Positions 1 to 15,691 of a stretch of DNA of 64,000 nucleotides are shown here, piece by piece; the first letter of the stretch is position 1; each line of letters begins with the position of its first letter. A program made the position numbers and the translations under genes. The notes beneath the pieces are model-generated. The model was given only the letters and a program-made list of their open reading frames with translations. It searched no databases and was not told where the DNA came from. This DNA is from a plasmid, in the sequence record NZ_CP093377.1, one strand, 5' to 3'.

Positions 1-302
1 AGCCGTTTGACCGTAAACTCTCCCTGTACGCTGGCCACAACGATATCGCCGTGCCGGGGCTTCTCAGCACTGTCCACAACCAGTAAATCGCCATTGTAGA
101 GGCTTCCGTCGGTCATACTGTCGCCGCTGGCGCGAAGGTAGTAAGTCGCGCTCGGATGCCGTATGCAGTAATCATGGAGATCCAGATCGGATTCGACATA
201 GTCAGCTGCAGGGCTGGGAAAACCGCAGCTGGCAAGGTCTGCAAACAACGGATGGGCCTGTGGCGGGAGTTCTTTCCCGGTGCTGAAAAGCTGCAGTTTC
301 AT
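1..302 (-). CDS. umuD: UmuD/MucA-like SOS mutagenesis protein, N-terminal part (C-terminus lies beyond the window start)
   Basis: Reverse-strand ORF starting at the ATG complementary to 300-302 with a GGAGG ribosome-binding site. Translation [66 protein letters not shown]...[17 protein letters not shown] contains the LexA/UmuD-type Ala-Gly cleavage site and Ser-Lys peptidase motifs. Confidence 0.75.
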
Positions 303-324
303 CTTTCCTCCTGACGTCTAAATA

Positions 325-344
325 TACTGGTTATCTATACAGTA
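325..344. promoter_or_regulatory. LexA (SOS) operator TACTGgttatctataCAGTA upstream of the umuD-like gene
   Basis: CTG-N10-CAG palindrome matching the SOS-box consensus, placed about 20 bp upstream of the umuD-like start. Confidence 0.6.
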
Positions 345-530
345 TATTTAACAGCGTGAGGATAATCCAGATCGCCTGCGCCATGAACAGAGTGAGTAAC
401 CTAAGCTACTCAAAATATTCTTAAATATCATTTTGATTCTCTATAGTTACTCACAATGAGAAATAAGGCTTTTATTTTTCCATTTTGATCTTATAATATG
501 CATCAAATTGAGTTTAATTGACGGAGCATA

Positions 531-1505
531 ATGATGAATATTTACTGCGATGATGGTTCAACTAATGTTAAGCTGGCATGGTTTGAAGGAAACGAGCTGC
601 AGACCCGGGTTTCTGCTAACTCCTTCCGGCATGGCTGGAAAGTGGCGGAGTTCAGTGCTGCAACGTTCAACTATCAGGTGGGTACGCTGAAATACACCTG
701 GGACAGCGTCAGCCGGGATGCCATCCCGACAACAAACGTGGAATATCAGTACGGTGATCTCAACCTGCTGGCCGTGCATCATGCGCTGCTGAACAGCGGG
801 CTTGAGCCGCAGCCGGTGAGCCTGACCGTGACGCTGCCCCTGAGCGAGTATTATGACGGGGACTGCCAGCGGAACGAGGAGAACATCCGACGCAAACGGG
901 AAAACCTGATGCGTGAGCTGGTTCTGAATAAGGGCAGGGCATTTACCGTAACGGACGTGAAGGTGATGCCGGAATCACTGCCGGCGGCGTTCTCCCGTCT
1001 CGCGGAGCTGAAGCCCGGACCCGCTGAGACCACCCTGATTATCGATCTCGGCGGAACCACGCTCGATGCCGGCGTGATTGTCGGACAGTTTGACGATATC
1101 AGTGCGGTACACGGCAATCCGTCTGTCGGCGTGTCGCAGGTCACCCGCGCAGCTGCAGGCGCGCTGCGGGCTGCAGACAGCGAAACCAGCGCGCTTATTG
1201 CTGACACGGTCATCCGCAACCGCAATGATCGTCAGTATCTGCAGCGTGTGATCAACGATGCCGGGAAAATCGACGATGTTCTGAACAAAATTACAGAGGC
1301 AATCACTTCCCTGGGCGCGCGTGTCACCAGTGAGCTGACGGCCTTCAGGAACGTTAACCGGGTATTCCTGGTCGGGGGTGGGGCATCCCTCATTGAAGAG
1401 GCTATCCGTCAGGCCTGGCCTCTGGCTCCTGACCGTATCGAGGTTATAGGCGATCCGCAGCTGGCGCTGGCCAGAGAGATTGCCCTTTACAATAAAGAGG
1501 ACTAA
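531..1505 (+). CDS. stbA: StbA/ParM-family actin-like plasmid segregation ATPase
   Basis: 324-aa ORF with actin-fold motifs (DDGSTNVKLAW, IIDLGGTTLD, VFLVGGGA). Typical ParM/StbA length. Followed 3 bp later by a second gene. Confidence 0.85.
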   Translation: MMNIYCDDGSTNVKLAWFEGNELQTRVSANSFRHGWKVAEFSAATFNYQVGTLKYTWDSVSRDAIPTTNVEYQYGDLNLLAVHHALLNSGLEPQPVSLTVTLPLSEYYDGDCQRNEENIRRKRENLMRELVLNKGRAFTVTDVKVMPESLPAAFSRLAELKPGPAETTLIIDLGGTTLDAGVIVGQFDDISAVHGNPSVGVSQVTRAAAGALRAADSETSALIADTVIRNRNDRQYLQRVINDAGKIDDVLNKITEAITSLGARVTSELTAFRNVNRVFLVGGGASLIEEAIRQAWPLAPDRIEVIGDPQLALAREIALYNKED

Positions 1506-1507
1506 AC

Positions 1508-2170
1508 GTGCCGGACGGCCAGTATTCTTTCTATCTGCACAGCGACGATCGCACCGACATCGCGGCGATGGCGACCATCAGTACCATCTCACAGCCCCTG
1601 CGCGGTGACTTCATCCGGACCGCTGCCACCGCCGGGGCGGTGATGTACCAGACGGATGCCCGTTTACCGGCGCTGATCCCGGTGTTCTTTGACGGGCACC
1701 TGAGCGCCATCCGGCTTTGCGCCGTGATGGCTCTGGTATCCGGCACCTGGTCTTCACTCTCAGGACTTCCAGATGAGCCTGATGGTGGCGTGGCGGCTCT
1801 GGCCATGTCACCGGAGACGCAATACCAGCGCCGGCGTTACACCCTGACGCTTCAGGATGACCGGAGCAGTGAACGGGTTGAGCGTGTGCTGACGGGCGTG
1901 TCATCCCGCCTGCGTGGCGAGCTGCTGAGAAACCTGATTATCACCGGTCTGGCCCTGCATACGACCGCGCCGGAGCTGCCGCGTCTGCTGGCCAGCATGC
2001 CGGTACCGCCCGGCACGGTCAGCGAGCTGCAGGTTCTGGTTCAGCAGATGCCCGGTACGGCTGGCGTGAGTAAGGCTGCAGTACCGGAGAAACCAGCACA
2101 GCCTGCCGCACCGGTAACCGGTGACGCGACCAGGATAAAGAAAAATATGCAACGGGCATTCGGAGACTAG
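1508..2170 (+). CDS. stbB: StbB/ParR-like segregation adaptor protein
   Basis: 220-aa ORF immediately downstream of stbA in operon arrangement, as in R100/R1 stb/par loci. The C-terminus is Pro/Ala rich. Confidence 0.55.
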   Translation: MPDGQYSFYLHSDDRTDIAAMATISTISQPLRGDFIRTAATAGAVMYQTDARLPALIPVFFDGHLSAIRLCAVMALVSGTWSSLSGLPDEPDGGVAALAMSPETQYQRRRYTLTLQDDRSSERVERVLTGVSSRLRGELLRNLIITGLALHTTAPELPRLLASMPVPPGTVSELQVLVQQMPGTAGVSKAAVPEKPAQPAAPVTGDATRIKKNMQRAFGD

Positions 2171-2173
2171 AAC

Positions 2174-2437
2174 ATGTCAGTGATTAAACAGAAGGCAGAG
2201 CAGTGTATTCATACCTTTCTGCGCGCCCGGAACGTGCCCGAATCTCAGTGGCCGGAACGGGTCAAAAAGACCGGCAGGGGAATGATACTGGCAGGCGTGG
2301 CCGTCGTGGTTCCCGGCGTTCTGGTTGATAACATATCCCTGCCGGTGACAATCGCGATGCAGGTCTGCTATGCCTCGCTGATCGGCCTCGGGGTTCTCCT
2401 GGCTTTTGACGATAAAAAGCCGAAGAGCCGACCCTGA
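2174..2437 (+). CDS. small membrane protein (2 predicted transmembrane helices)
   Basis: 87-aa ORF starting 4 bp after the stbB stop, with hydrophobic stretches. Confidence 0.4.
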   Translation: MSVIKQKAEQCIHTFLRARNVPESQWPERVKKTGRGMILAGVAVVVPGVLVDNISLPVTIAMQVCYASLIGLGVLLAFDDKKPKSRP

Positions 2438-2580
2438 GCAAGAACATCATTCAGAATGGTAACCAGACAGCCAGGGAGGGACTGATGCAAAAGGTTAAGA
2501 GCGCAGGGCTGACGCTGGCGCGGCCAGCGAGCTGTTGAACTGTCAGGACATAAGGGAGATGAACACAATGAGGAAGACAA

Positions 2581-2847
2581 ATGAAGTGTAATACTGCAAT
2601 TTTGTTTGTGGCGCTCACACTGGCAATACCTGGTGCGGTGAATGCGGCAGCCACAGTGGCGGTTCTTGACCAGTTGGCCAAGCAAAAGCAAAAGGAACGT
2701 GAAGACCAGCTCGAAGCCGTGGAACGTGATGCTTTGGCACAGCCAGATGCATGGAAAGCGTATCTACAGGTGTCTGAGCAGTGCCTGCTGATGCTCCCAT
2801 CATGCTGCAAAACCGCTACCGCAGCCTCGCCATTTCACTGGCACTGA
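2581..2847 (+). CDS. small secreted protein with N-terminal signal peptide
   Basis: 88 aa. Signal peptide MKCNTAILFVALTLAIPGAVNA. AGGA ribosome-binding site upstream. Confidence 0.4.
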   Translation: MKCNTAILFVALTLAIPGAVNAAATVAVLDQLAKQKQKEREDQLEAVERDALAQPDAWKAYLQVSEQCLLMLPSCCKTATAASPFHWH

Positions 2848-2958
2848 AGGCTGCAATGGCCTGTTCCCCAGACGCCCTCAAGCTCCTCGGGCGTAACGAC
2901 GTGATAGAGTTTCGCGTACTCCGATCATCGTTAGTCTCAGCCTGCAGCACAGCTAAAT

Positions 2959-3103
2959 AAGAGAGCTGCTGAGAAACCTGATTATCACCGGTCTGGCCCT
3001 GCATACGACCGCGCCGGAGCTGCCGCGTCTGCTGGCCAGCATGCCGGTACCGCCCGGCACGGTCAGCGAGCTGCAGGTTCTGGTTCAGCAGATGGCCGGT
3101 ACG
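2959..3103. repeat. ~145-bp direct duplicate of the 3' end of stbB (copy of 1919..2063, one mismatch)
   Basis: Exact string match of gagctgctgagaaacctgattatcaccggtctggccctgcatacg...ctggttcagcagatg at both places. This explains the shared peptide in the reverse-strand ORFs 1901..2152 and 2816..3259. Confidence 0.9.
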
Positions 3104-3171
3104 GCTGGCGTTTAACGAGAAAAAACCAAAGGGGCGGGGATGAATATGAACATTAACCTGAAGGAAACAGT

Positions 3172-3375
3172 ATGAAGCTTGAAGAACTGTCAGGAGACGA
3201 ACGCACGCTGGTCGTTGTGGCACTGCAGGCGCTGCACCGTGAGAGACTGACCGCATCAAATGCCGTCTTTACGGTCTGTAGTCTGGCCGGAAAAAAGCAG
3301 CCGCCGGAAGATATTTTTGGGCTGCGTGAAGTTCAGGATGCGCTGAGACGTATCGGTGCTGCACCTGCGCGTTAA
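3172..3375 (+). CDS. hypothetical small protein
   Basis: 67-aa ORF with a GGAAAC-type ribosome-binding site region. Confidence 0.35.
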   Translation: MKLEELSGDERTLVVVALQALHRERLTASNAVFTVCSLAGKKQPPEDIFGLREVQDALRRIGAAPAR

Positions 3376-3534
3376 ATCCGGCCCCGTACACTTCAGAACT
3401 AAAAAACGGCAGGCTGATATCGTGTCCCTGCCGCCATACATTACCTCGTCCTTATCCTCTGCCTCCTCCTCCTGAATAAAAAGGAAGTCGTTTCTCTCCG
3501 CTTTATTGCCGCCAGCCGGCGGCGTGTTCAACGC

Positions 3535-3690
3535 CGTGCCTTCACGCTAACCCGGCCGCTGCGGTCGCAAGGGTTCACGTTGTCTCCGTCCTCACCCGTT
3601 CGCACCTTTCACGGTGCATTCAGCCCGTGAAAGGCTTGCGCTGCGGCTTGCGGCGTCGCCCCTGCGCCCTCCGCTCAGAGCCGGGTTTTT
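3535..3690. repeat. ~150-bp structured repeat, copy 1 (candidate single-strand promoter or ssi element) upstream of the methyltransferase gene
   Basis: Near-identical to 5270..5425. Contains a perfect 9-bp stem ctttcacgg / ccgtgaaag with an 11-nt loop and GC-rich flanks. Lies 50-60 bp upstream of an anti-restriction-type gene. Confidence 0.6.
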
Positions 3691-3739
3691 GTGGCGGCAC
3701 GGCGCAAGAGGGTGCCGCATATCAGAGAGGAGTGTGTCT

Positions 3740-4432
3740 ATGTCCCGTTTTATTCTGGGTGACTGCGTGCAGGTGATGTCCCGTTTTCCGGCGCGTGCCG
3801 TCGATTTTATTCTTACCGATCCGCCGTATCTGGTTGGCTATAAGGACCGTACCGGGCGCACCCTGGCCGGGGACAACTCTGCCGAATGGCTCCAGCCCGC
3901 CTGTCATGAAATGTACCGCGTGCTGAAAAATGACAGCCTCATGGTGAGTTTCTATGCCTGGAACCGCGCGGATCTGTTTCTGAATGCGTGGAAAACGGCC
4001 GGTTTCCGGGTGGTTGGCCATATCGTCTTTACCAAGAGCTACGCCTCAAAATCGACGTTCGTGGGTTACACGCACGAGAGCGCCTACCTGCTGGCTAAGG
4101 GGAGGCCGCAAACCCCGGACCGTCCCATCCCGGACGTGATCCCCTGGAAATACACGGGCAACCGACACCACCCGACGGAGAAGCCGGTGCAGAGCCTGCG
4201 ACCGCTGATTGAATCGCTCACGCGTCCCGGGGCCATTGTCCTTGACCCGTTCGCCGGCAGCGGCTCCACCTGCGTGGCCGCCGCCGAAGCCAGCCGCCGC
4301 TATATCGGGATCGAGATGCTTGAGGAGTACCACGCCGCCGGCGTCCGCCGTCTGGCACAGGTTGAACGGGCGAGAAGGATGCCGGCGGCCAATGACGGCG
4401 CGTTTTACCCTGACTGGCCGGAGGCAGCATGA
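3740..4432 (+). CDS. orphan N6-adenine/N4-cytosine DNA methyltransferase (beta-class; DPPY then FAGSGST)
   Basis: Motifs ILTDPPYLVG and LDPFAGSGSTCVAA. No adjacent restriction gene. Typical leading-region orphan methylase. Confidence 0.85.
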   Translation: MSRFILGDCVQVMSRFPARAVDFILTDPPYLVGYKDRTGRTLAGDNSAEWLQPACHEMYRVLKNDSLMVSFYAWNRADLFLNAWKTAGFRVVGHIVFTKSYASKSTFVGYTHESAYLLAKGRPQTPDRPIPDVIPWKYTGNRHHPTEKPVQSLRPLIESLTRPGAIVLDPFAGSGSTCVAAAEASRRYIGIEMLEEYHAAGVRRLAQVERARRMPAANDGAFYPDWPEAA

Positions 4433-4650
4433 ATTACCCGGGACTTGAACACCTGCGCGCGGACGTGGCCGCGCTCAGCAATGCCATGTGTGACGTGCGG
4501 ATGATGCTGAACCGCCTCGAATCACAGCACCGGCACGATGCGGCAACGCTTACCGAACGTATGGCTGCGCAGACTCTGCGCCGGATCAACACCCTGCTTC
4601 TGGAAGCCTACCGCGAAGCCCTGGTGCTGGACGAAACCTTTCAGGACTGA
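4429..4650 (+). CDS. hypothetical protein, translationally coupled to the methyltransferase (ATGA overlap)
   Basis: 73-aa ORF whose start overlaps the methyltransferase stop. Confidence 0.45.
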   Translation: MNYPGLEHLRADVAALSNAMCDVRMMLNRLESQHRHDAATLTERMAAQTLRRINTLLLEAYREALVLDETFQD

Positions 4651-4705
4651 CTGACCCTGCCGGGCTGATGCCCGGCCTGTAACCCCTTACAAGAGAGAAA
4701 AAACG

Positions 4706-5128
4706 ATGTACGGAACCCGCGAAGAACTTTGTGTACAGCTTGAAAACATGTTCACGTCTGACGAGCCCCTGGTCCTGCTGGTCTGGACGGAAGAGGGGAT
4801 AAGCGTGGCCTGCCGTGAAGCCCAGCCAGAACCGGACGGGGCTGAAATCCGGGAGGTGATGAAGGCGCTCGGCGAAATGAAAATGACGCAATACCGTCAG
4901 CAGGGGGTAAATAATCTGACCATTAGCGACCTTCTGACCCGTCAGCGCGAAGCGGCAAACCGTCAGGTGAGTGTTCCGGCGGTACTCCTGTCACGTGTCC
5001 TGCGTAACTATGAATGCGAGCTGGAAAACCGGATCGGTATGGCCTGGGAAGCCGGGCGGCAGGAGCCGGAATCCGTCAGGGATGAGCTGAATAACGTTCG
5101 CGCCCTACAGGAGACGCTGGCCGCCTGA
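4706..5128 (+). CDS. hypothetical leading-region protein
   Basis: 140-aa ORF with an AGAGAAAAAACG ribosome-binding site region. A terminator-like hairpin follows at 5131..5155. Confidence 0.5.
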   Translation: MYGTREELCVQLENMFTSDEPLVLLVWTEEGISVACREAQPEPDGAEIREVMKALGEMKMTQYRQQGVNNLTISDLLTRQREAANRQVSVPAVLLSRVLRNYECELENRIGMAWEAGRQEPESVRDELNNVRALQETLAA

Positions 5129-5269
5129 GAGAACGCCGGGGTAACGCCCCGGCAACCGGTGGCCATCCACTGCGAATAAGGATGTCAGTGCCTTCCGCTT
5201 TTATCCGCCGCCGCCCTCCGGGCTACGTCGGGACAATGAAACTCCCCTGAAGCTCCGTGCGGTGACGGC

Positions 5270-5425
5270 ATGCGCCGTGACTTCACTGTAGCCCGGCCGC
5301 ATCGGCCACAAGGGTTCGCTGACGCCTCCGTCCTCACCCGTTCGCACCCTTCACGGTGCATTCAGCCCGTGAAGGCTTTGCGCTGCGGCTTGCGGCGTCG
5401 CCCCTGTGTCCTCCGCTTTTCGCCG
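5270..5425. repeat. ~150-bp structured repeat, copy 2, upstream of klcA
   Basis: Same element as 3535..3690, with the same 9-bp stem hairpin. Confidence 0.6.
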
Positions 5426-5483
5426 GTCTGTCGTGTCGTCACGGCGATGCCGGAACCGAGAATATGTTAACCGTGGAGGATCT

Positions 5484-5912
5484 ATGAACCAGACCGTGAC
5501 CTGTGATGCTGTTCGTCTTGAGGGTGCGCAGCGCCTGACTTTCCTGCCTGATTTGTTTGGCGGCGATTTTATGACGTCCGAGGCATCCGTGTACGCCTAC
5601 GCCGGGCGTTACTGCCCTGAGTATCAGGGGGGATTCTGGCAGTTTTACCGGCTGCCGGAAGGCGGCGGATATATGGCACCTGACGTGGAGAGCCTGACCC
5701 TGTGCAATCGGGACAACTGGTTTGAGCAGACTGTCAGCGGGGAAGTGGCGGGGATCATCCTCACGGCACTGGTACTGAATCACCGGAGCTGGCACCACAG
5801 TAACCATGACCATGAGGAGCTGTGCCGCCACTTCTGCCGCCGTTATGAGCAGCTTATGGCATTTGCTGATACCCATCCGGAAAGCGCCACCATCTGGCGT
5901 GCCCTTGACTGA
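5484..5912 (+). CDS. klcA: KlcA/ArdB-family anti-restriction protein
   Basis: Strong similarity to RK2 KlcA and ArdB (LTFLPDLFGG, VYAYAGRYCPEYQGGFWQFYRLPEGGGYMAPD). The start is taken at MNQTVTCD. Confidence 0.8.
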   Translation: MNQTVTCDAVRLEGAQRLTFLPDLFGGDFMTSEASVYAYAGRYCPEYQGGFWQFYRLPEGGGYMAPDVESLTLCNRDNWFEQTVSGEVAGIILTALVLNHRSWHHSNHDHEELCRHFCRRYEQLMAFADTHPESATIWRALD

Positions 5913-5954
5913 CTGACCACGGGCGGCGATGCCGCCCGATTAAAGGATAAAAAC

Positions 5955-6152
5955 ATGCAACTGTCACCGGAAACCCGCAGCATCCTGCGCCAGTATAAAA
6001 CGCTCATCAACGAGCGACGTCGCGAATCAGGACTCAGCCCCGTAACAACAGCGAAAGTGCTGGATGAGATCTGCGAATCGGCTACCCGACAGTGTGCCGC
6101 CTATCTTTGCGGCCACTTCATTCTCCAGGGCGGCCAGGGGGATGGACAATAA
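5955..6152 (+). CDS. hypothetical small protein downstream of klcA
   Basis: 65-aa ORF. Confidence 0.4.
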   Translation: MQLSPETRSILRQYKTLINERRRESGLSPVTTAKVLDEICESATRQCAAYLCGHFILQGGQGDGQ

Positions 6153-6318
6153 ATAATCCGGGCGGGGCATAGGCGCCGCCTGTTCGCGCGCGAAAACCCT
6201 GTCATCCCTTCGGGCTGACGGGCGGCAAGGCCAGCGCCTGCGGCGCTGCCCCCTCCCGCCCTGATGTTAGCCCGGGGCAATGCAGATGAAAACCCTTGTG
6301 AGGGCAAATTGTCACGGA

Positions 6319-6369
6319 TACGGTCCTGCGTGGCGTGGCGTGGCGTGGCGTGGCGTGGCGTGGCGTGGC
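6319..6369. repeat. (GGCGT)n pentanucleotide tandem repeat, about 7-8 units
   Basis: tgcgtggcgtggcgtggcgtggcgtggcgtggcgtt read directly from the sequence. Confidence 0.9.
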
Positions 6370-6432
6370 GTTGTCGCCAGCTCTGAAACCCGATCAGCAA
6401 ATCCTCTGAAAACACCTGAATCCTTCTTCTGG

Positions 6433-6959
6433 CCCCCTTCGGCTCCCGGCCCGCGTGGCGGTCCGGTCGTCGAGCCCCACTCCGCCAGGTCGGCTGCTGA
6501 CGCACCCGCCGGGCTCCGCCGAACCCGCAGGCGGTTTCGGGCTGACGCTAGGGTCTGATGGCTGAGGTCAACCCCCTGGCTTGCACCGGCCGGAGGCCGG
6601 GCCGCCCTGACCGCGCCGGCGGAGCCGTCGCTTTAAGGCCGCCACGCCGTTCCGACGTGTCGGGTGCGTGCATCCTGTTCTCCCGGTGAGGCCATCCCCC
6701 GTGCGTCCTCACGCGGAGGGCTGCTTGTAGCACCGTCGTGTCGTCATCCGAAGGGTGAAATGCACGCCGCCAAAACTTTTTGCGTGCCGCAAAAACTTTT
6801 GTCTGCGCCCTTCTTCTGCCGCCCCGCCGTTGCTCCTTTTGCCCTTTGCCGCGAGAGAACTCACCAGGGAGATGGCCAACCATCACCACAGGAGAAAACC
6901 AGGATGCACACACAAAACGTCAACGTCAAAACCGCCGCTCAGGAATCTTCCAGGAAGAT
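6433..6959. repeat. leading-region long structured repeat, copy 1 (~530 bp; candidate Frpo/ssi-type single-strand promoter cassette supplying ribosome-binding site, ATG and first ~17 codons)
   Basis: >95% identical to 11690..12200 and 14911..15436. GC rich with many internal inverted repeats. Ends 55 nt into ORF 6904..7176. Confidence 0.8.
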
Positions 6960-7176
6960 GGGGGAAGAGCAAAACCCTGTTTCTGTCGCGCGTGAGTGGG
7001 TGGCTCAGGCCACTTCGCTGAAGGCGGGGGTCACCGTCACCCTGTCCGACGTTTCCCGATATGGCGACGTGCAGGTGGAGATCCGCACCAACGGAACGCT
7101 TAACTGGCGCGCCTGGTCGTTTGAACCGGATTTTCTTTTTGAACTGAAACGCAACCTGCAATACGTGCAGCTTTAA
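6904..7176 (+). CDS. hypothetical protein whose N-terminus (MHTQNVNVKTAAQES) is encoded by repeat copy 1
   Basis: AGGAGA ribosome-binding site 8 nt upstream of the ATG. 90 aa. Hairpin terminator-like structure at 7178..7200. Confidence 0.55.
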   Translation: MHTQNVNVKTAAQESSRKMGEEQNPVSVAREWVAQATSLKAGVTVTLSDVSRYGDVQVEIRTNGTLNWRAWSFEPDFLFELKRNLQYVQL

Positions 7177-7219
7177 CCGGAGGCCGGATGTCCGGCCTTA
7201 ACCCAGAGAAGGAGGAAAC

Positions 7220-7585
7220 ATGCAGAACCTTAACACCCGTCCGGCGACCCGTAAGGTCGGGCAGAGCACCGAAATCGTGAAGCTGCTGCGCATTCAGGCC
7301 AGCGACACCCACGTGGTCGAGTTTGACAACGTGGACACCCGTTTTAACGACTGCAACAACTGGCAGGTGATGGCAGGGGACAAACGTGTCCTGTTCAGCA
7401 ACCGCATGTATGAACGTTTTTCAGATGTGAAATCGGGGATTCTGGCAACGATCAACGTATGTGAAAACTGCGCCAGCGAAACGGATAAAGCGATGCTGGA
7501 AGGGGCAAAAGTCATGATGCAGGTACTCGACGGCTATCCGTCCTTTGCAGCACTGGCTGCACACCCGAAACGTATTACCGGTTAA
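7220..7585 (+). CDS. hypothetical leading-region protein
   Basis: 121-aa ORF with a GGAGGAAACATG ribosome-binding site. Confidence 0.55.
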   Translation: MQNLNTRPATRKVGQSTEIVKLLRIQASDTHVVEFDNVDTRFNDCNNWQVMAGDKRVLFSNRMYERFSDVKSGILATINVCENCASETDKAMLEGAKVMMQVLDGYPSFAALAAHPKRITG

Positions 7586-7652
7586 CCGGGTGCCGTGACC
7601 GGATCGCACTCCGGCCACGGCGGACCATCACTTAAACACAGGAGTAAAAATC

Positions 7653-9665
7653 ATGGCCACCACCAATACTACGGCAAAAAAACCTGCGAAATCCACCTCT
7701 GCGAAAAAGACAGCGGAGAAAATCGCGCAGACTACCGAGCAGAAGCTCGTTCAGCTGCTCGCTGATACGCCCGTGCAAATCTTCCCGTACTCCCGCCTGT
7801 CACGCACTGACTTAAACACGCGCATTATTCCGCATACCGATCAGGAAGTGGAAGAGATGGCAGACAGCATTCAGGCAATGGGCATCCTGCAAAACCTGAT
7901 CGGTGCAGAACTGCCGGACGGTACGATCGGCATTGTCGGCGGGGAAGGTCGCCGCAGGGGCACAGGCATTCTGGTGATGCGCGGTGTGCTCGATGCAGAC
8001 ACGCCGTTTGTTCCGGTGAAAGTCCTGCCCGTGGAGATGGCGGTGGCGGCCTCGATGATCGAGAACGGTCGACGTAAACACATGCATCCCGCCGAGCAGA
8101 TTATCGGTTTTCGTACCCTTCAGCAGGAAGGTAAAACGGCTTCTCAGATCGGCGCACTGATGGGCTATCACCCGCGCCACGTTCAGCGCTGCCTGAAACT
8201 GGCGAATCTTGCCCCCTCCCTGCTGGATGCGCTGGCGCGGGATGAAATCTCCCTTGAACAGTGTGAAGTCCTGACCCTTGCTGATACCCATGAGCGTCAG
8301 GAGCAGGTCTGGAAAGAGGCTGTTGTACAGTGGCGCGATCCTGCCGTACAGACCCTGCGCAAAATGGTGACCGACGACAAGATGGCCATCAGTCACCCGA
8401 TGTTTGAATTTGTGGGCGAGGAAGCCTATACCGCCGCTGGCGGTACGCTGACCGCCGACCTGTTCAGCGACAGGGACAGCACCTTTGCCGATGCGGCGCT
8501 GGTGAAATCCCTGCTGGCTGGCAAGCTCACCGTGCTTGCCGCCCGCCTTCAGCAGGAGCAGGGCTGGGGCTGGTCAGAATTCCGTATGACGGAACTCAGC
8601 CACAGCGGCGAGGACAGGGAACAGTACCGCTTTGCCATGCCGGAACCTGTTCTGACCGAAGATGAGCTGCAACGTATTAACGAGCTGGAAGATGCAATTG
8701 AAGGATGTATGGCGTATGACGACGAATACGAGCTTCAGCAGCAGATTGACGATATTCACTGCGAGGCGACTTATCGCGAAGCCACGCCGGAATTTCGCGC
8801 CGCGCACGGAATCTGGGTGTCATGGGATGGTGACAGTTTTCAGGTTCAGCCTGGTATCCGCAGGCTGACCGACGAAGACCGGGCAGCAGAAGAACAGGCG
8901 CGTCAGGAGCGTGAAAAGAACGTAATCAGACACACCACGCCTGACATTCCCGCTGACGCCTATCCGGCAACGCTGGTTAAGGCCATGTCTGCGGAGCGCA
9001 CTCTTGCCGTTCAGGCGGAACTGGCGGGTCGCCCCGATGTATCGGTGGCGCTCCTGACGTGGACGCTGTGTCTTGCGCTCTTTGATCGCACCTACGGTAA
9101 ACGCAGCGAACCGCTGAAAGCCTATGTGACCTCGAATCAGTATCACCTTGCATCACTGGCGCCTTCCGGTGAAACAGGGAAGGCGCTGACGGCGCTCAGG
9201 GCACAGAAAAAAGCGCTTCAGGCAACGCTGCCCGAAAACTGGCATCTCGATTTCACCTGGCTGCTGTCATGGTCAGCAGAGCAGGTGAACACCCTGCTGG
9301 GATTCTGTGCCGCGCACGGTATCAACGGTATTCAGGAACGTATGTATAACCATACGCAGAAAAGCGAACTGGACGGGCTGGAAGCGGCGCTGGACTTTGA
9401 CCTGCGCAAGTGGTGGCAACCGGGGGCTGAGAGCTACTTCGGCAAGCTCACGATTTCCCAGATTGGCAAAGCCTATGAAGAAGCCGGACTGAGTGCCCGT
9501 GCAGGTGAAGTTGTGAAGCTCAGGCGCCGCGATGCGGCAAAGGCCGCCGAACAGGATCTGAATGCTCAGGGCTGGCTGCCTGACTGGATGGTGCGCACAG
9601 CGCCAGCCGCTGAGGCTGAAGAAGCCACTGAATCCGACGCTGATATCACTGACCACGCTGCTTAA
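7653..9665 (+). CDS. ParB-nuclease-domain (ParB/Srx N-terminal) leading-region protein, 670 aa
   Basis: N-terminal ParB-like motifs (IPHTDQEVEEMADSIQAMGILQNLI, GGEGRRRG, helix-turn-helix region) and a long C-terminal extension. Conserved position upstream of psiB in F-like leading regions. Confidence 0.75.
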   Translation: MATTNTTAKKPAKSTSAKKTAEKIAQTTEQKLVQLLADTPVQIFPYSRLSRTDLNTRIIPHTDQEVEEMADSIQAMGILQNLIGAELPDGTIGIVGGEGRRRGTGILVMRGVLDADTPFVPVKVLPVEMAVAASMIENGRRKHMHPAEQIIGFRTLQQEGKTASQIGALMGYHPRHVQRCLKLANLAPSLLDALARDEISLEQCEVLTLADTHERQEQVWKEAVVQWRDPAVQTLRKMVTDDKMAISHPMFEFVGEEAYTAAGGTLTADLFSDRDSTFADAALVKSLLAGKLTVLAARLQQEQGWGWSEFRMTELSHSGEDREQYRFAMPEPVLTEDELQRINELEDAIEGCMAYDDEYELQQQIDDIHCEATYREATPEFRAAHGIWVSWDGDSFQVQPGIRRLTDEDRAAEEQARQEREKNVIRHTTPDIPADAYPATLVKAMSAERTLAVQAELAGRPDVSVALLTWTLCLALFDRTYGKRSEPLKAYVTSNQYHLASLAPSGETGKALTALRAQKKALQATLPENWHLDFTWLLSWSAEQVNTLLGFCAAHGINGIQERMYNHTQKSELDGLEAALDFDLRKWWQPGAESYFGKLTISQIGKAYEEAGLSARAGEVVKLRRRDAAKAAEQDLNAQGWLPDWMVRTAPAAEAEEATESDADITDHAA

Positions 9666-9702
9666 TACCAGAGGCCGCCGCCTTCGGGCGGCGGGAACAG
9701 AC

Positions 9703-10137
9703 ATGACCATGCAATATGACCTGAACCGAATCAACACCCTGACCGCCACAGACCTGGAGTTTATCCGTCAGCAGGGCGAGGACGCGCGCCGCGCCCTCAG
9801 CGATGCCGTGACCGGCCTCCTGTCGGCACCTGAAGGATGGCGCGTCTGCGCCGAGTTCCGCAGCGAGTTCGGCGATTTCTTCCCCGTCCAGTGCCGCTTC
9901 AGCGCGGACGGCAGTGATGACTGGCATCTGTGCGTGTGCAGCCCCGGCGAAGTCTCGCCTTACTGGCTTCTGGTGCTGCTCTCCTCCGGCGGTGAAGTGG
10001 TGCGTACCCTTTACCAGAGCGACACGCTACAGCCTGACCGGATAAACCAGCTGATCGCGCAGCTGGCAGGTATGCGCCGCTTTAACTGCACTGCCAGCAC
10101 CGTGGCGAACCTGATGAGCGGGGAGGTGACAGCATGA
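9703..10137 (+). CDS. psiB: PsiB, plasmid SOS inhibition protein B
   Basis: Alignable with F PsiB (EFGDFFPVQCRFS..HLCVCSPGEVS..WLLVLLSSGGE). Confidence 0.85.
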   Translation: MTMQYDLNRINTLTATDLEFIRQQGEDARRALSDAVTGLLSAPEGWRVCAEFRSEFGDFFPVQCRFSADGSDDWHLCVCSPGEVSPYWLLVLLSSGGEVVRTLYQSDTLQPDRINQLIAQLAGMRRFNCTASTVANLMSGEVTA

Positions 10138-10880
10138 TCCCGTCCTCACACGCGCTCGTTTCCCTGAAACCCGCCCGTCAGGCTGCAATACAGGCTATCA
10201 GCCATGTTGAGTCTGCCCGCGAACGCGGCGCACGACTGCCCGCCATGCCGTATGTGCGTACCTTTCTGCGCTTGCTCACGGGCAGCGGTCGCCTCAACGC
10301 CACGGTGGCCAGTAAAATACCTGGCCTGCACTGGGTGCCAGATAACCGTCATTCGAACCTGAAACAGGTCGAGGAGGCGCTTAACACGATGATCGCCACC
10401 AGTGGCGAAGCCTGCCCGCTGCCGCTCACGACTGACGTACAGGCCGAACTGTTCCCGGAAGTCATGCACACCCGCACGGGGCGACGGCTGCACAGATCCA
10501 GCATTAAGACCACGCGTCAGCTTCGCCGCCAGTCCCGTCAGTACGAACAGCGCTGGAAACTGCGCCAGAACCTGCTGGAGCAGGCGAAAATCGACCTGAA
10601 TTTTCAGTCACCGGAAACCGTCTGCACCTGGTACACCCGGTGGAGCGACGAGTTTGACGCGGCAGAGCTTGCCGGACCGTTCTGGCGCTGGCAGTCGCGG
10701 TTCGCGTCGCTGAAGGAACTTGACTGGCTTCGCATCAGCGGTGAGCCGCTGTATGCAGTGATGTACGAAATCCCGTTTATTGTCCGGGAAACACCTGAGC
10801 ATGTTCGTGTCGCTGAACGCTGGCAGGTGCCGAATAAGTTGCAAAATCAGCAGGGGGAAGGGGCGCATCAGAAGTCATGA
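10134..10880 (+). CDS. psiA: PsiA, plasmid SOS inhibition protein A
   Basis: 248-aa ORF coupled to psiB (ATGA overlap), with PsiA-like length and sequence. Confidence 0.75.
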   Translation: MIPSSHALVSLKPARQAAIQAISHVESARERGARLPAMPYVRTFLRLLTGSGRLNATVASKIPGLHWVPDNRHSNLKQVEEALNTMIATSGEACPLPLTTDVQAELFPEVMHTRTGRRLHRSSIKTTRQLRRQSRQYEQRWKLRQNLLEQAKIDLNFQSPETVCTWYTRWSDEFDAAELAGPFWRWQSRFASLKELDWLRISGEPLYAVMYEIPFIVRETPEHVRVAERWQVPNKLQNQQGEGAHQKS

Positions 10881-11029
10881 GGATATATACAGTTTTTGGA
10901 CTGTTATTCCTGGGCAGATGATCGACAACGGGATATAATGGCGATGGCGCTTGAGGCTTTTTGCCTCATGATGTGAAGGTGGTTTGTTGTCGTGTTGTGT
11001 GGCAGAAAGCAGAAAGCCCCGTAGTTAAT

Positions 11030-11100
11030 TTTCATTAACCCACGAGGCCCCCTGTATGTCTCAACAACAACAGTATGGCCTCTTACCGTGCTTAATGCAA
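11030..11100 (-). ncRNA. sok: Sok-like antisense RNA of the hok/mok locus (approximate)
   Basis: Position inferred from type-I toxin-antitoxin locus organisation, antisense to the mok start region. Not delimited from sequence alone. Confidence 0.35.
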
Positions 11101-11271
11101 GGAGGAGTAAACCATGAAACTGCCGCGAAGTACCGTTATCTGGTGCGTACTGATAGTGTGTCTCACACTGCTGATATTCACTTACCTGACGCGAAAATCG
11201 CTTTGCGAAATTCGCCTGAGGGACGGACAACGGGAGGTCGCTGCAATTCTGGCTTACGAATCCAACGGTAA
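11056..11271 (+). CDS. mok: Mok, modulator of killing (overlapping reading frame needed for hok translation)
   Basis: 71-aa ORF overlapping hok in the +1 frame and ending 4 nt before the hok stop. Confidence 0.6.
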
Positions 11272-11275
11272 GTAG
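11114..11275 (+). CDS. hok: Hok/FlmA-family type-I toxin
   Basis: [53 protein letters not shown] is near-identical to Hok/FlmA. Confidence 0.9.
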
Positions 11276-11285
11276 CAACCTGGAG

Positions 11286-11306
11286 GCGGGGGAAACCCCG
11301 CCTTTT
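11286..11306 (+). terminator. rho-independent terminator / hok mRNA 3' fold-back element
   Basis: ggcgggg-gaaa-ccccgcc followed by tttt. Confidence 0.6.
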
Positions 11307-11605
11307 CAGGGCTGAGTTGCTCTGACATACCTGAAGCGCCTTTATGAAGGGGTTGCCGGTTCGCCGTCAGCCCCTTTTTCCTTCCCGACGCGACCGCACG
11401 CCTGAACCTCCGGGAAGGGCTGTTCCCCTGCGGGGAACGGGGGAAGGGGGACGCGCCTCCGGCGCTGCCCCTCTGCTCCCTCTGCCTGAGCCTCCCTCCT
11501 GCCTGTCCTGCCTGATTTTGTTGAATTCGAAACTCCGTGAGCTACCTGCTCATACCTGGCTTCGGCCTGGTGTGCCCGATGTTCTTTAGCCTGTGCGTCA
11601 TATCC

Positions 11606-12200
11606 GGCGTCCTGCCGGTTAACTTTCGCATCTGCAGCTGTATGGCCATAACCCGAAAACAGGGCAGGGCGATGGCCCCCTTCGGCTCCCGGCCAGCGCT
11701 GCTGTCCGGTCGTCAAGCCCCACTCCGCCAGGGCGGCTGCTGCGCACCCGCCAGGCTCCGCCGAACCCCTCCGGGTTTCGGGCTGACGCTAGGGTCTGAT
11801 GGCTGAGGTCAACCCCCTGGCTTGCACCGGCCGGAGGCCGGGCCGCCCTGACCGCGCCGGCGGAGCCGTCGCTTTAAGGCCGCCACGCCGTTCCGACGTG
11901 TCGGGTGTGTGCATCCTGTTCTCCCGGTGAGGCCATCCCCCGTGCGTCCTCACGCGGAGGGCTGCTTGTAGCACCGTCGTGTCGTCATCCGAAGGGTGAA
12001 ATGCACTCCGCCAAAACTTTTTGCGTGCCGCAAAAACTTTTGTCTGCGCCCTTCTCCTGCCGCCCCGCCGTTGCTCCTTTTGCCCTTTGCCGCGAGAGAA
12101 CTCACCAGGGAGATGGACAACCATCACCACAGGAGAAAACCAGGATGCACACACAAAACGTCAACGTCAAAACCGCCGCTCCCGAATCTTCCAGGAAGAT
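11606..12200. repeat. leading-region long structured repeat, copy 2
   Basis: Homologous to copies 1 and 3. Weaker homology to the copy-3 upstream region extends back to about 11370. Confidence 0.8.
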
Positions 12201-12459
12201 AGAGGGAAAAACCGTGTCGTACACGATCCTCGTCGCTGAGCAGAAAAAAAACTCAGCGGAGGAACCTGATGTTCTGGAGTTCAGCAGCCTGGCTGAGCTG
12301 AAGAAACTGCGCAGACGCTGCCCCGAAACGATGCGCTGCACCTATTTCTACGCCCTCAGCAGCGGCGTCGATAAACAGTTCCGCCATATCCATGTGGCTG
12401 AAGCTGACCACTTCAAACAGTTTGTGCGCCTGATCGCGCGCGCAGGTATCGACATTTAA
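12145..12459 (+). CDS. hypothetical protein with repeat-encoded N-terminus (MHTQNVNVKTAAPES)
   Basis: 104-aa ORF with the same ribosome-binding site and ATG context as 6904 and 15382. Confidence 0.55.
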   Translation: MHTQNVNVKTAAPESSRKIEGKTVSYTILVAEQKKNSAEEPDVLEFSSLAELKKLRRRCPETMRCTYFYALSSGVDKQFRHIHVAEADHFKQFVRLIARAGIDI

Positions 12460-12520
12460 ATCCGGTTTCACCCCGTGCGGCAGCCGCCGCCCGGAACTTA
12501 ATCAGACAGGAGCCAGAAGC

Positions 12521-12727
12521 TTGAGCGTTAACACCCCGACCGCAAAGGCCCGTTACGAAAATGGGCATATGTCAGACCCTGAGCCTAAAACAGCCTCTCT
12601 CATTGCGATTTATGGCAATGAGGTGAGCTATGCATGGAACGTTCTGGAGGATTTGAAAGCTGCAGGTGCTTCTTATACCCGCAGAAACATTATCGCCGAT
12701 ATGTTCCGCCGTCTGGGTGTTCAGTAA
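12521..12727 (+). CDS. hypothetical small protein (TTG start, N-terminus MSVNTPTA)
   Basis: 68-aa ORF. Its 5' region including the ribosome-binding site is duplicated at 12770..12830. Confidence 0.4.
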   Translation: MSVNTPTAKARYENGHMSDPEPKTASLIAIYGNEVSYAWNVLEDLKAAGASYTRRNIIADMFRRLGVQ

Positions 12728-12804
12728 CCCGGACTTACCTCTGACCCGATGCGGTGCTGTATAGCAGGTACCGCTCGGAACTGAATCAAACAGGAGCCTG
12801 AAAG

Positions 12805-13266
12805 ATGAACGTTAACACCCCGACCGCTGCACCAATGGCCTTTTTCGTTCCGTCTCATAACGCCGTTTATGACCGCGCAACCCGGCTGGAAGGGCAGTGG
12901 GTGACTCAGCGTGAAGCGATAACGCTGGAAGCCCTGCGCCGTTTCTATCCGGATGCGGAGCTGATCCCCGCGACTCTGGTTCAGGAAAAGCAGAATGAAG
13001 GCTATCGCCGTCCCTGGGTGGAAATCACCGAGGCCCGGTACATCGACCAGCTGGAAACGCTGCCGCCAGTGGACTGGTGCAGAGGGTATGGCGGGGAGTC
13101 GTTCAAATCGATGGAGTTTACGGGCGGGGATGTGACCGCAATTTTCGTCCGGTACGGCGCGCGTTTCTTTGAGTGCCATGACCTGCACACCCGCCATCAC
13201 CGGGAGCTGATTGGCGACGTGATCACCCGTTTCTGTCTCGATGCGCCGCTGAATTCCGCGCATTAA
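12805..13266 (+). CDS. hypothetical leading-region protein (N-terminus MNVNTPTA, paralogous 5' end to the previous ORF)
   Basis: 153-aa ORF with ribosome-binding site. A bidirectional hairpin terminator follows at 13268..13292. Confidence 0.55.
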   Translation: MNVNTPTAAPMAFFVPSHNAVYDRATRLEGQWVTQREAITLEALRRFYPDAELIPATLVQEKQNEGYRRPWVEITEARYIDQLETLPPVDWCRGYGGESFKSMEFTGGDVTAIFVRYGARFFECHDLHTRHHRELIGDVITRFCLDAPLNSAH

Positions 13267-13353
13267 AAAAGCAGGGTTGCCCCTGCTTTCTCAACGCCGG
13301 GTAGCCGCTGTAACGGTGAACCGGCAATCACAACCAAAGTAAGGAGATTGATC

Positions 13354-13500
13354 GTGAAATTTGACCCGCAAACTGTAAAACAGGCTGAGGCATTTGTAAA
13401 TGCCCTCCGCGCCGGAAAACGTGCACACATGCCCGCGCTGCGTTTCGGCCAGTGGCAGCAATTTATGACCACCGTTTACGCTGGTCTGGGGCTGGCATAA
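13354..13500 (+). CDS. small hypothetical protein (GTG start, 48 aa)
   Basis: AAGGAG ribosome-binding site 9 nt upstream of the GTG. Below the 60-aa cutoff of the ORF track. Confidence 0.3.
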   Translation: MKFDPQTVKQAEAFVNALRAGKRAHMPALRFGQWQQFMTTVYAGLGLA

Positions 13501-13540
13501 CAGGAGGCGGCCGCCTGCGGGCGGCCGGTAAGGAGAAACC

Positions 13541-14318
13541 ATGTCACAACTGAGTTTTGAATCCCTGTTCCTGGCAGACCAGACCGAACCGCAGCCGCGG
13601 GTTTCCGCTCCTGTCCGGGTATTGTCGCCAGCTGAGGCGCGTAAGCAGTTCGCCAGTGTATTCCGCCAGACTGCGAGATATATGCACCGTTCCGAAGTGT
13701 TCCTTGCTGCCAGTGGGCTGGATATGGCGCGCATACACACGCCAGAAAACATCGAAAACAGCCGACGCATCTGCGAACGGTATCAGCCAGACGATTTAGA
13801 CGCCATGAGGCATCTGTTCTGCCTGTTGGTGGAGGGGCTGGCGGGTGAAATGCATGATTTCCTCGGCGCTCTGTATATGGAGCATGAGCTGGGCGCGGAC
13901 GAAATGGGGCAGTATTTCTCGCCGTCCTCCATCTCCCGCCTGCTGGCCGGGCTACTCATGCCCGGCGCTCAGGAGACGATAAAGCGTGAGGGGGGGGATG
14001 ACGCTCGATGAACCCGCCTGTGGCAGCGCCGGTATGGTCATTGCCTTTGCTTACTGGATGGCTGAAGCGGGACTGAATCCATCTGAACAGCTGTATGCGA
14101 CCTGCACTGATATCGATCCGATGGTGGCAGATATGGCCTTTATCCAGCTGTCACTGCTGGGTATCCCCGCGAAAGTCGTGACCGGTAATACGCTGACTCT
14201 GAAAGCAAATCGCGTGCGTTATACCCCCGTGTATTACTTCAATGACTGGCAGGGACGTCTGGAGTTCCGCAGCCGTTTCGAAGCGATGAAAAACTTTCTG
14301 GCCACCGTGGCCGCCTGA
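13541..14318 (+). pseudogene. HsdM/N6-methyltransferase-like gene interrupted by a +1 frameshift at a G8 tract (13990..13997). It lacks the catalytic NPPY/F motif even when the frame is restored.
   Basis: ORF 13541..14011 carries GQYFSPSSISRLLAGLL (motif-X-like). ORF 13986..14318 in the next frame carries LDEPACGSAGMVIAF (motif-I-like) and an HsdM-like downstream helix. Removing one G would fuse them into one ~260-aa protein. Confidence 0.5.
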
Positions 14319-14359
14319 CTGACAGAGCGGCAGGGCAGACCTGCCGCAGGGAGATAAAA

Positions 14360-14695
14360 ATGACAAGCAACACACTGAACGCTGTTCCGGCGACCGTGCT
14401 GGAGACCATGGCAGAACGCCTCAACGGCCAGCCTGAACCGCTAAAAATCCGCAACAACGACGATCACGCTGCACTGGCTGCAGATGTGCTCTGGCAGTTT
14501 GCCCGAAAAACCGGGCTGAACAGGGAAAGCGAGAGCGTGCAAACTGTCATCACTGATTTTCTGGCCAATCTTCTGCACCTGTGCGAACAGTGCGATCCTG
14601 ACGGGGCAGGTATCGACGGATTTAATGCCCTGCTGAATATGGCCATGATGCATTATGAGCAGGAAAACGGAGGCGACAGCGAAGAACCAGTTTGA
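14360..14695 (+). CDS. hypothetical leading-region protein
   Basis: 111-aa ORF with a GGGAGATAAAAATG ribosome-binding site. Confidence 0.5.
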   Translation: MTSNTLNAVPATVLETMAERLNGQPEPLKIRNNDDHAALAADVLWQFARKTGLNRESESVQTVITDFLANLLHLCEQCDPDGAGIDGFNALLNMAMMHYEQENGGDSEEPV

Positions 14696-14839
14696 TCGGG
14701 AGTCTGTGCCCTGGTGGATGCCATCAGGGCAACCGCAAAAAAACGCTTCCCCTTAGGGGAAACGGGGAGGGCGAAAGCGCCTCCGGCGCTCCTGCCATTC
14801 CCCGCTACCGTACTTCTCTCCTTACCTGCCTTCAGAACC

Positions 14840-15436
14840 GGCGTCCTGCTGGTTAACTTTCTCAGCTGCAGCTTTGTTATGGCCATAACCCGAAAGCAGG
14901 GCAGGGCGATGGCCCCCTTCGGCTCCCGGCCCGCGTGGCGGTCCGGTCGTCAAGCCCCACTCCGCCAGGGCGGTTGCTGACGCACCCGCCGGGCTCCGCC
15001 GAACCCCTTCGGGTTTCGGGCTGACGCTAGGGTCTGATGGCTGAGGTCAACCCCCGGGCTTGCACCGGCCGGAGGCCGGGCCGCCCTGACCGCGCCGGCG
15101 GAGCCGTCGCTTTAAGGCCGCCACGCCGTTCCGACGTGTCGGGTGCGTGCATCCTGTTCACCCGGTGAGGCCATCCCCCGTGCGTCCTCACGCGGAGGGC
15201 TGGTCGTAGCACCGTCGTGTCGTCATCCGAAGGGTGAAATGCACGCCGCCAAAACTTTTTGCGTGCCGCAAAAACTTTTGGCGGCGCCCTTCTCCTGCCG
15301 CCCCGCCGTCGCTCCTTTGCCCTTTGCCGCGAGAGAACTCACCAGGGAGATGGCCAACCATCACCACAGGAGAAAACCAGGATGCACACACGAAACGTCA
15401 ACGTCAAAACCGCCGCTCAAGAATCTACCGGAAGAT
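14840..15436. repeat. leading-region long structured repeat, copy 3
   Basis: Homologous to copies 1 and 2. Ends 55 nt into ORF 15382..15675. Confidence 0.8.
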
Positions 15437-15675: not shown

Positions 15676-15691
15676 TCAGGAGTAAATAAAA

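Follow-up and report, generated by a model that had tools for sequence, protein, structure and literature searches.

In the IncI1 plasmid pESBL, six operons are strongly induced 15 min after transfer, as determined by RNA sequencing, and a hairpin promoter was predicted in front of each operon, with all six transcription starts being mapped by 5' rapid amplification of cDNA ends (Wen et al. 2025, PMC12672017). The hairpins were grouped into class 1 (the ssi/Frpo type), class 2 (the klcA/ardA pair) and class 3 (the promoter of the M.EcoGIX methylase), of which classes 2 and 3 are conserved in F, and class 3 was considered to differ from the remaining hairpins (PMC12672017). The F copy located before yfgB was designated ssp2, and its deletion lowers the transfer into restriction-proficient recipients; the stem of ssp2 also stalls the synthesis of the complementary strand at the stem end, independently of transcription, the stall being resolved by UvrD, and the ssp3 promoter is as strong as ssp2 and causes no stall (Fraikin et al. 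2026 preprint, 10.64898/2026.01.09.698686). The same ssp2 element, with a GC content of 68.6%, was found independently by Shaw et al. 2026 (PMC13478746), and is 86% identical to one candidate of Samuel et al. In the Supplementary Table 2 of Samuel et al. 2024, Frpo* 1 and Frpo* 3 are listed as computational candidates of low certainty on a contig from an insect gut metagenome, OFEI01000013.1. Here we describe a repeated hairpin on a stretch of 64,000 nucleotides from the plasmid record NZ_CP093377.1 (hereafter the window, numbered from its first letter, with the strand as presented taken as plus), of which one copy is located upstream of a DNA methyltransferase gene and the other copy upstream of the anti-restriction gene klcA.

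The repeat forms a conserved and strand-specific hairpin with a conserved sequence motif, is coupled at a fixed distance to the downstream gene, and is homologous to class 2/ssp2. We consider each copy, with a probability of about 0.85, to be a single-strand DNA promoter, representing a short apical variant of the class 2/ssp2 family. The original prediction for this DNA had proposed single-strand promoters for first-wave expression of anti-defence genes from the transferred strand (T-strand), and the proposal is supported by the folding strand, the covariation, the motif and the homology to class 2. The activity on single-stranded DNA in vivo, the mapped starts and the requirement in restriction-proficient recipients are taken from the literature on the homologues, and would apply to the window copies by analogy. 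Since the principle, the family and the placement of this element type before klcA, ardA and methylase genes were already published in 2024-2026, this interpretation by itself adds nothing new. Hairpins of this type decide whether a plasmid expresses its anti-restriction proteins in the minutes before the host defences cut, and have a bearing on the spread of resistance plasmids among Enterobacter, Klebsiella and relatives.

Two imperfect hairpins upstream of the methylase and klcA genes

The repeat consists of copy A at 3532-3704 (173 nt) and copy B at 5273-5446 (174 nt), both folding as imperfect hairpins on the minus strand, and the two copies are 84% identical from end to end (147 of 175 aligned columns). 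In the repeat search, they were detected as two pairs of blocks, 3584-3704 with 5326-5446 (87% identity) and 3532-3576 with 5273-5317 (82% identity). A direct repeat had been predicted earlier at this position, as the near-identical intervals 3535-3690 and 5270-5425. The repeat is indeed present, but its extent and identity differ from that description: these intervals are out of register by about 6 nt and share only 78.7% identity, and near-identity is an overstatement even for the true units. Each unit is enclosed by terminal inverted arms, located by the repeat search at 3532-3556 and 3680-3704 for copy A and at 5273-5297 and 5422-5446 for copy B. Copies A and B, with GC contents of 68.2% and 67.2%, matched the family profile with E-values of 1e-51 and 5e-49, respectively, and are the only two copies within the 64-kb window (nhmmer profile, E up to 1).

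For both copies, a 9-bp stem, CTTTCACGG/CCGTGAAAG, with an 11-nt loop had been proposed. This stem exists in copy A (3606-3614 and 3625-3633), where it extends to a perfect stem of 10 bp closing a loop of 10 nt, GCTGAATGCA on the minus strand (stem-loop at 3605-3634), but it is missing in copy B. The counterpart in copy B is the 9-bp stem CCTTCACGG (5348-5356)/CCGTGAAGG (5367-5375), in which a T·A pair of copy A is replaced in a compensatory manner by a C·G pair, and the loop of this stem-loop (5348-5375, minus strand) is the same as that of copy A. The apical stem is, however, only the tip of the structure, each whole unit forming one long imperfect hairpin. When folded as DNA, the minus strand gave -55.8 kcal/mol for copy A (z -4.5) and -58.9 kcal/mol for copy B (z -5.8), and none of 200 shuffled sequences was as stable; the structure prediction of the reverse strand, proposed earlier as a check, thus yields a stable minus-strand hairpin. 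The corresponding values for the plus strand were -53.9 kcal/mol (copy A) and -48.7 kcal/mol (copy B).

Between the hairpin and the next gene lie 35 nt for copy A (3705-3739; start codon at 3740) and 37 nt for copy B (5447-5483; start codon at 5484), instead of the 50-60 bp given in the original prediction. The first gene after copy A (3740-4432, plus strand) encodes a DNA methyltransferase without a nearby restriction partner (Pfam N6_N4_Mtase, E 3.2e-38; annotated as "DNA methylase" in related plasmids), and the first gene after copy B (5484-5912, plus strand) is an anti-restriction gene of the klcA/ardB family (PF03230 Antirestrict, the ArdB/KlcA family of Pfam, E 5.1e-26), both in agreement with the identities assigned previously.

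The window represents the leading region of a conjugative plasmid of the IncFII type from Enterobacteriaceae. A segment of 2.4 kb recurs with 95-96% identity in many Enterobacter and Citrobacter plasmids, of which one inspected is conjugative, IncFII and MOBF. On the plus strand, the genes are aligned in the order parM, a stability gene, the methylase gene, klcA, a ParB-like gene, psiB, psiA, the sok RNA, a DUF932 gene and traA through traI, and the order from parM to the tra genes is likewise found in F and R64. It is the minus strand that is transferred, and this strand serves as the template of all the genes listed. The TraI relaxase is encoded on the plus strand at 47135-52549, and one nic-like sequence, GTGGGGTGTGATGTTTT, was found on the minus strand at 17272-17288, between the DUF932 gene and traA, as a single match with two mismatches (chance expectation 0.18) to the nic-region sequence of F/R100. 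In F-like plasmids, the nicked strand exits with its 5' end first, the leading region being first to leave. The location of TraI on the plus strand, the nic-like site on the minus strand and this order of exit together indicate that the minus strand is transferred. The strand assignment agrees with what Couturier et al. 2023 and Samuel et al. 2024 describe.

Covariation and a putative promoter on the gene-distal arm

Relatives of the two copies were collected by scanning metagenomes for a pattern built around the apical loop and one of the junction motifs, which gave 120 loci. Together with the loci of the window and of fetched plasmids, 171 full-length elements were obtained, including 127 unique sequences, 111 of which are unique short variants. 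From these short variants, 44 representatives (<95% identity, median pairwise identity 72%) were aligned with the two window copies (alignment A2, n=46). The consensus fold of the 46 sequences contains 40 pairs, and 28 of these show compensatory changes; an extra consensus pair, 51-162, was rejected as unsupported, being unpaired in 39 of the 46 sequences. The fraction of paired cells was 95.5% as compared with 85.0% after shuffling, and none of 500 shuffles matched the observation on any of five measures, even though this control overstates the significance because the aligned sequences are related. In a second control, in which the partner was slid by 1-3 columns, 30-43% were paired. The apical helix covaries in 9 of its 10 pairs across the relatives. 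Between copies A and B themselves, six paired nucleotides differ, forming exactly three compensatory pairs (C·G to A·T, A·T to G·C and T·A to C·G) with no pair broken, and the other 25 differences are all located in unpaired columns.

Two motifs that flank the variable tip, AAGCCGCAGC and GAACGGGTGAGGA, never vary (A2 columns 70-78 and 119-131). These junction motifs are located at 3643-3652 and 3591-3603 in copy A and at 5385-5394 and 5334-5346 in copy B. Only four of their bases pair mutually, so that the conservation points to a sequence-specific role. The shorter cores AGCCGCAGC and CGGGTGA are retained in nearly all the aligned relatives of class 2 and of the class 3-like group.

TTG-N15-TAnnGT is conserved among the 46 sequences on the gene-distal arm, which is the 3' arm of the transferred strand. 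The -35-like bases T, T and G are present in 45, 39 and 39 sequences, respectively, and the -10-like bases T, A, G and T, with two variable positions in between, in 45, 46, 45 and 45. In copy A, the boxes on the minus strand are TTGCGA (3565-3570, columns 157-162) and TAGCGT (3544-3549, columns 179-184); in copy B, TTGTGG (5306-5311) and TACAGT (5285-5290) occupy the same strand and the same columns. In both copies the -10-like box is located 15 nt past the -35-like box. In the -35 box, the first four positions are base-paired, and the fourth covaries (G·C 22, A·T 12, G·T 4). The -10 box begins with a paired T, followed by an internal loop that holds the invariant A (-11) together with the two bases after it, and its final G and T are included in a 3-bp mini-helix. 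Only in the folded single strand does this motif face the arm that continues into the template of the gene. No conserved promoter motif was found on the gene-proximal arm, read toward the loop, in the alignment of 46, and a simple sigma-70 scan of both strands between 3000 and 7000 detected no duplex promoter pattern.

Based on this arrangement, a mode of expression from the incoming strand can be proposed. Upon conjugation, the minus strand would enter the recipient alone, with its 5' end first, from a nick near 17.3 kb, and the 173-nt element would fold back on itself. The gene-distal arm with TTGnnn-N15-TAnnGT would then serve as the non-template strand, opposite the gene-proximal arm, which is continuous with the template of the downstream gene. 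The -35 box would be duplex, and part of the -10 box would already be open, with the invariant A at -11 and the two bases after it being held in the internal loop. RNA polymerase of the host with sigma-70 would start near the base of the hairpin, at about 3699 and about 5441, and proceed into the methylase operon and klcA, respectively. The predicted starts, both on the plus strand, are 3699 (±2 nt) with a 41-nt leader for the methylase operon, as counted 7 nt past the T at -7, and 5441 (±2 nt) with a 43-nt leader for klcA, by the same reasoning; each corresponds to an invariant A of the non-template arm (column 192, 46 of 46) that is paired with a T of the template arm (column 16). Synthesis of the complementary strand would abolish the hairpin and the expression would stop, because in duplex DNA the boxes belong to the other strand, about 150 bp upstream of the gene, and are directed away from it.

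The same features bear on another role, to which we assign a low probability, in which the hairpin is mainly or only a structure on the incoming strand, either a barrier to complementary-strand synthesis or a priming site, and not a promoter. The homologue in F, ssp2, does stall the complementary-strand synthesis independently of transcription (Fraikin et al. 2026 preprint), and transcripts of the Frpo type can prime DNA synthesis according to the literature. The window copies are also GC-rich like ssp2 (68.2% and 67.2% versus 68.6%), and the invariance of AAGCCGCAGC and GAACGGGTGAGGA exceeds what pairing explains. A pure barrier, however, needs neither the conserved TTG-N15-TAnnGT with its unpaired invariant A nor a fixed spacing of 19-40 nt from a ribosome-binding site with its start codon. 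In the homologues, transcription starts have been mapped, and the barrier described in the literature comes on top of the promoter function. Moreover, ssp2 exceeds the window copies by about 70 nt in length and is more stable (-80 versus -56 to -59 kcal/mol), and the hairpin before the DUF1281-methylase operon of F, the probable ssp3, folds at about -50 kcal/mol, ssp3 being reported to lack barrier activity. Given the properties of ssp2, a barrier or priming role might plausibly exist in the short variant as an additional function, next to that of a single-strand promoter.

Folding strand, downstream genes and relatives

The Watson-Crick covariation is blind to the strand, whereas G·T wobbles discriminate between the strands. 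In the minus-strand orientation, the alignment contains 66 G·T cells versus 6 A·C cells, or 41 versus 6 when one dominant pair is left out, indicating that the minus strand is the folding strand. Because the structure had first been predicted in the minus-strand orientation, the prediction was repeated on the reverse complement. The consensus fold had 40 pairs and -43.7 kcal/mol in the T-strand orientation as against 24 pairs and -18.9 kcal/mol for the complement, and the direction was the same with DNA parameters. The minus-strand orientation was more stable for 45 of the 46 aligned sequences and for all 18 plasmid copies folded. On this comparative evidence, the folding strand is the transferred strand, not the mRNA-sense strand.

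Several observations weigh against a single-strand promoter. The plus strand of the single copies also folds significantly (z -4.6 and -4.2), and for this reason the strand preference rests on the comparative data. The conservation of the apical loop and of the GAACGGGTGAG motif in A2 is by construction, since the search pattern fixed both. The spacer of 15 nt is short for sigma-70, for which the optimum is about 17, and the hexamers of both copies (TTGCGA/TAGCGT in copy A, TTGTGG/TACAGT in copy B) are weak compared with the consensus. Between the boxes, the template arm is about four nucleotides longer than the non-template arm (24 versus 20 in copy A), and one may speculate that this longer arm could stretch the geometry of the 15-nt spacer.

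With the strand asymmetry at hand, it is very unlikely that the hairpin functions as a plus-sense RNA, be it a terminator, an insulator or stabilizer of the upstream operon, or a regulatory leader of the downstream gene. The good folding of the plus strand in single sequences and the position of the elements between operons would suit such an RNA, but the G·T to A·C ratio and the consensus energies given above favour the opposite strand, no family of Rfam matched the hairpins, and a transcription start at the hairpin base would leave the hairpin outside the mRNA. In a scan of 1-20000 against Rfam with E up to 1, no family was detected at the hairpins and only sok reached the threshold. A pattern scan of genome contigs with GCCGCAGCGCN{20,50}CGGGTGAG gave chance matches only, from GC-rich Actinomycetota and similar genomes, because this pattern was too GC-rich and too short, whereas the pattern with an AT-containing loop worked for the metagenomes.

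The coupling of the element to a downstream gene was examined for all 171 elements. A ribosome-binding site (Shine-Dalgarno sequence), a start codon and an open reading frame of at least 40 codons were present within 140 nt downstream for 164 elements, with a distance of 19-40 nt between the end of the profile match and the start for 160 elements; on the other side, such a start was found for only 20 of the 171. Near-duplicates being included in the counts, the first downstream gene codes for KlcA/ArdB (59 elements), methylase (49), ArdA (9), DUF1281 (4), an acidic protein of 155 amino acids (29) or a protein of 260 amino acids with unknown function (9). The family of about 155 amino acids, represented by the gene downstream of L134:3661-3837 and those at 28 other metagenome loci, is without a Pfam match. 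Because it occupies the same position as KlcA, ArdA or methylase elsewhere, it is a reasonable candidate for an anti-defence function; by tblastn, the family is not encoded in the 64-kb window.

In a sensitive blastn search with copy B as the query, 4168 of 72,556 plasmid records gave a match, mostly from Klebsiella, Enterobacter, Serratia, Citrobacter, Yersinia, Escherichia and Salmonella. At least 80% of copy B is covered in one piece in 403 of these 4168 records, while most others match in two pieces because of a longer tip. The element is located directly upstream of klcA in pKpQIL, directly upstream of methylase and ardA in Yersinia pestis pMT1 and a Salmonella IncFII plasmid, upstream of ardA and a gene of unknown function in a Lelliottia plasmid, and upstream of an anti-restriction gene in a Serratia plasmid. 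Absence from related plasmids had been named beforehand as a finding that would speak against the promoter; the search instead found the element in F, IncI1 plasmids and pKpQIL upstream of klcA, ardA and methylase genes (the records compared include NC_002483 and NC_005014). As to pMT1 (L007), which is typed as non-mobilizable and carries no transfer genes, two long-tip copies are present, upstream of methylase and ardA, and look like a remnant of a conjugative leading region.

These distributions leave even less room for a REP-like or miniature-transposon-like palindrome, or a substrate for recombination, situated between genes by chance and without a role in expression. The two direct copies at 1.74 kb spacing and a hybrid copy on a metagenome contig (L238) would fit such an element, but its orientation and spacing relative to the downstream gene are constant, the copies inspected in annotated plasmids are found among leading-region genes, before a limited number of anti-restriction and methylase genes, and in 64 kb there are only two copies, with no terminal repeats or target duplications seen. 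An intrinsic (rho-independent) terminator, which the original prediction had named as a possible refutation, is excluded by the missing T-run after either hairpin, the empty terminator scan and the strand test, neither element showing terminator features.

The hybrid on L238 (764-950 of a contig of 1310 nt) is a single element, of which the gene-distal half resembles copy A (window 3475-3675) and the gene-proximal half, together with klcA, resembles copy B (window 5273-5814), the methylase operon being absent. Such a state is the expected product of recombination between two direct copies, but could also be an ancestral single copy or a repeat collapsed in the assembly.

The operon after copy A includes two more genes on the plus strand, the second gene for a protein of 73 amino acids with unknown function (4429-4650, from the list of open reading frames) and the third for a DUF1380 protein (4706-5128, E 8e-12), and the gene order of this operon is the same in F, R64, pKpQIL and pMT1. 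The sok antitoxin RNA (10945-11116, plus strand; RF01794, 98 bits, E 1.7e-21) belongs to a hok/sok-type module directly after psiA. Upstream of copy A, a direct repeat of 149 nt is present at 1919-2067 and 2963-3111 (99% identity, spacing 1044 nt); its first copy lies within the Plasmid_stab_B gene (1508-2170), and the arrangement looks as if about 1 kb had been duplicated in tandem. In the Citrobacter plasmid NZ_CP114567 (L001), the corresponding region contains one small open reading frame fewer.

Relation to the described hairpin classes

Elements of the Frpo/ssi type (class 1/ssp1, including Frpo1 and Frpo2 of F and ssi1-3 of ColIb-P9; Masai and Arai 1997) are, like the putative promoters described here, transferred-strand hairpins of the leading region that rebuild -35 and -10 boxes, but the short element is only about half their length. 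A blastn search (word size 7, E up to 1e-3) of F ssiD and ssiE and ColIb-P9 Frpo1-3 against 3532-3704 and 5273-5446 gave no match. Another hairpin repeat, about 370 nt long, occurs in the window in three copies (6533-6903, 11768-12144 and 15006-15381, all on the minus strand), upstream of the ParB-like/psiB/psiA block, of the genes near 12.2 kb and of the DUF932 gene, respectively. They are 72-76% identical to Frpo* 5/7, which are distant Frpo-like candidates of Samuel et al., and presumably represent the long repeat of the original prediction. Just upstream of the first of these repeats, the pentamer GCGTG is tandemly repeated in about 8 copies (6328-6367).

Closer likeness was found with the metagenome candidates. 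The minus strand of the window copies is 75-77% identical to Frpo* 1 (E down to 5e-35, blastn) and 72-73% identical to Frpo* 3, the matches to the two candidates spanning 128-226 nt, and both candidates have the same apical loop and junction motifs as the window copies; the metagenome pattern scan also recovered their contig, OFEI01000013.1 (L211). Frpo* 1 and 3 were published only as sequence listings, whereas the window copies are located on an IncFII-type plasmid of Enterobacteriaceae. The covariation, the G·T strand asymmetry and the conserved, apparently pre-opened -10 box added here indicate that these low-certainty Frpo* candidates are real transferred-strand structures.

A profile made from the short variants only detected the F hairpin before yfgB/ardB (L009:7488-7714, E 1e-12) and the hairpins of the IncI1 plasmid R64 before klcA and ardA (L011:4210-4437 and L011:11159-11387, E 6-8e-13). 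The class 2 matches span positions 6-182 of the model of about 184 positions, and with a mixed profile the E-value is about 1e-27. As the direct pairwise blastn between the window copies and the class 2 loci of F and R64 was not significant, the case for homology to class 2 is made by the profile and by intermediate sequences such as that of pKpQIL. The short-variant profile also detected a hairpin of 165 nt before the DUF1281-methylase operon, in R64 (L011:386-544) and in F (L009:3664-3822), with E-values of 1.4-1.8e-13 and again across nearly the full length of the model. Judging from its position, this hairpin is probably the published class 3/ssp3. It is similar in length to the window copies (about 165 nt) and carries TTGCAT-N15-TAACGT together with the same junction motifs, but differs in having another apical domain without the CTGAATG loop, and the identity to the window copies is 59-62%. 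If R64 386-544 is class 3, classes 2 and 3 would be related to each other.

With class 2/ssp2, the window copies share the basal stem GCCGTG...CACGGC, the junction motifs AAGCCGCAGC and CGGGTGA, and homology over the whole element, as well as CCCTTGnnn-N15-TAnnnT on the gene-distal arm, the location 30-40 nt before klcA/ardA, the folding of the transferred strand and a GC content of about 68%. The class 2/ssp2 elements differ in length (about 240 nt versus about 173 nt) and in their greater stability, as given above, and are 57-58% identical over the shared columns. The apical domain of about 90 nt in ssp2 corresponds to the covarying stem of 9-10 bp with the loop GCTGAATGCA in the window copies. 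Judging from position, the direct target of one window copy would be the methylase gene, whereas in F and R64 no class 2 element drives this gene directly. The window copies, at 173-174 nt, do not show the architecture of about 240 nt with a long apical domain, and because this domain is replaced by a short stem-loop, they are filed as a short variant of the wider family and not as strict class 2.

We consider, as a tentative and rather improbable extension, that the short variant is a separate subclass linking the published classes 2 and 3, in which the invariant AAGCCGCAGC, GAACGGGTGAGGA and the loop GGGCTGAATGC would form a recognition site for a factor of host or plasmid, such as RNA polymerase, SSB, UvrD or primase, and the swappable apical domain would set whether the complementary-strand synthesis is also held up, and hence the duration of first-wave expression. 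Beyond the published descriptions, the present analysis adds the catalogue of immediately downstream genes, including the 155-aa acidic family, and places three forms on a single scaffold. Over the shared columns, the window copies are 57-72% identical to the relatives of class 2 and of the class 3-like group, and class 2, the probable class 3 hairpin and the short form have in common the basal stem GCCGTG/CACGGC, AAGCCGCAGC, (A/C)CGGGTGA and the putative promoter arm, differing from each other in a swappable tip.

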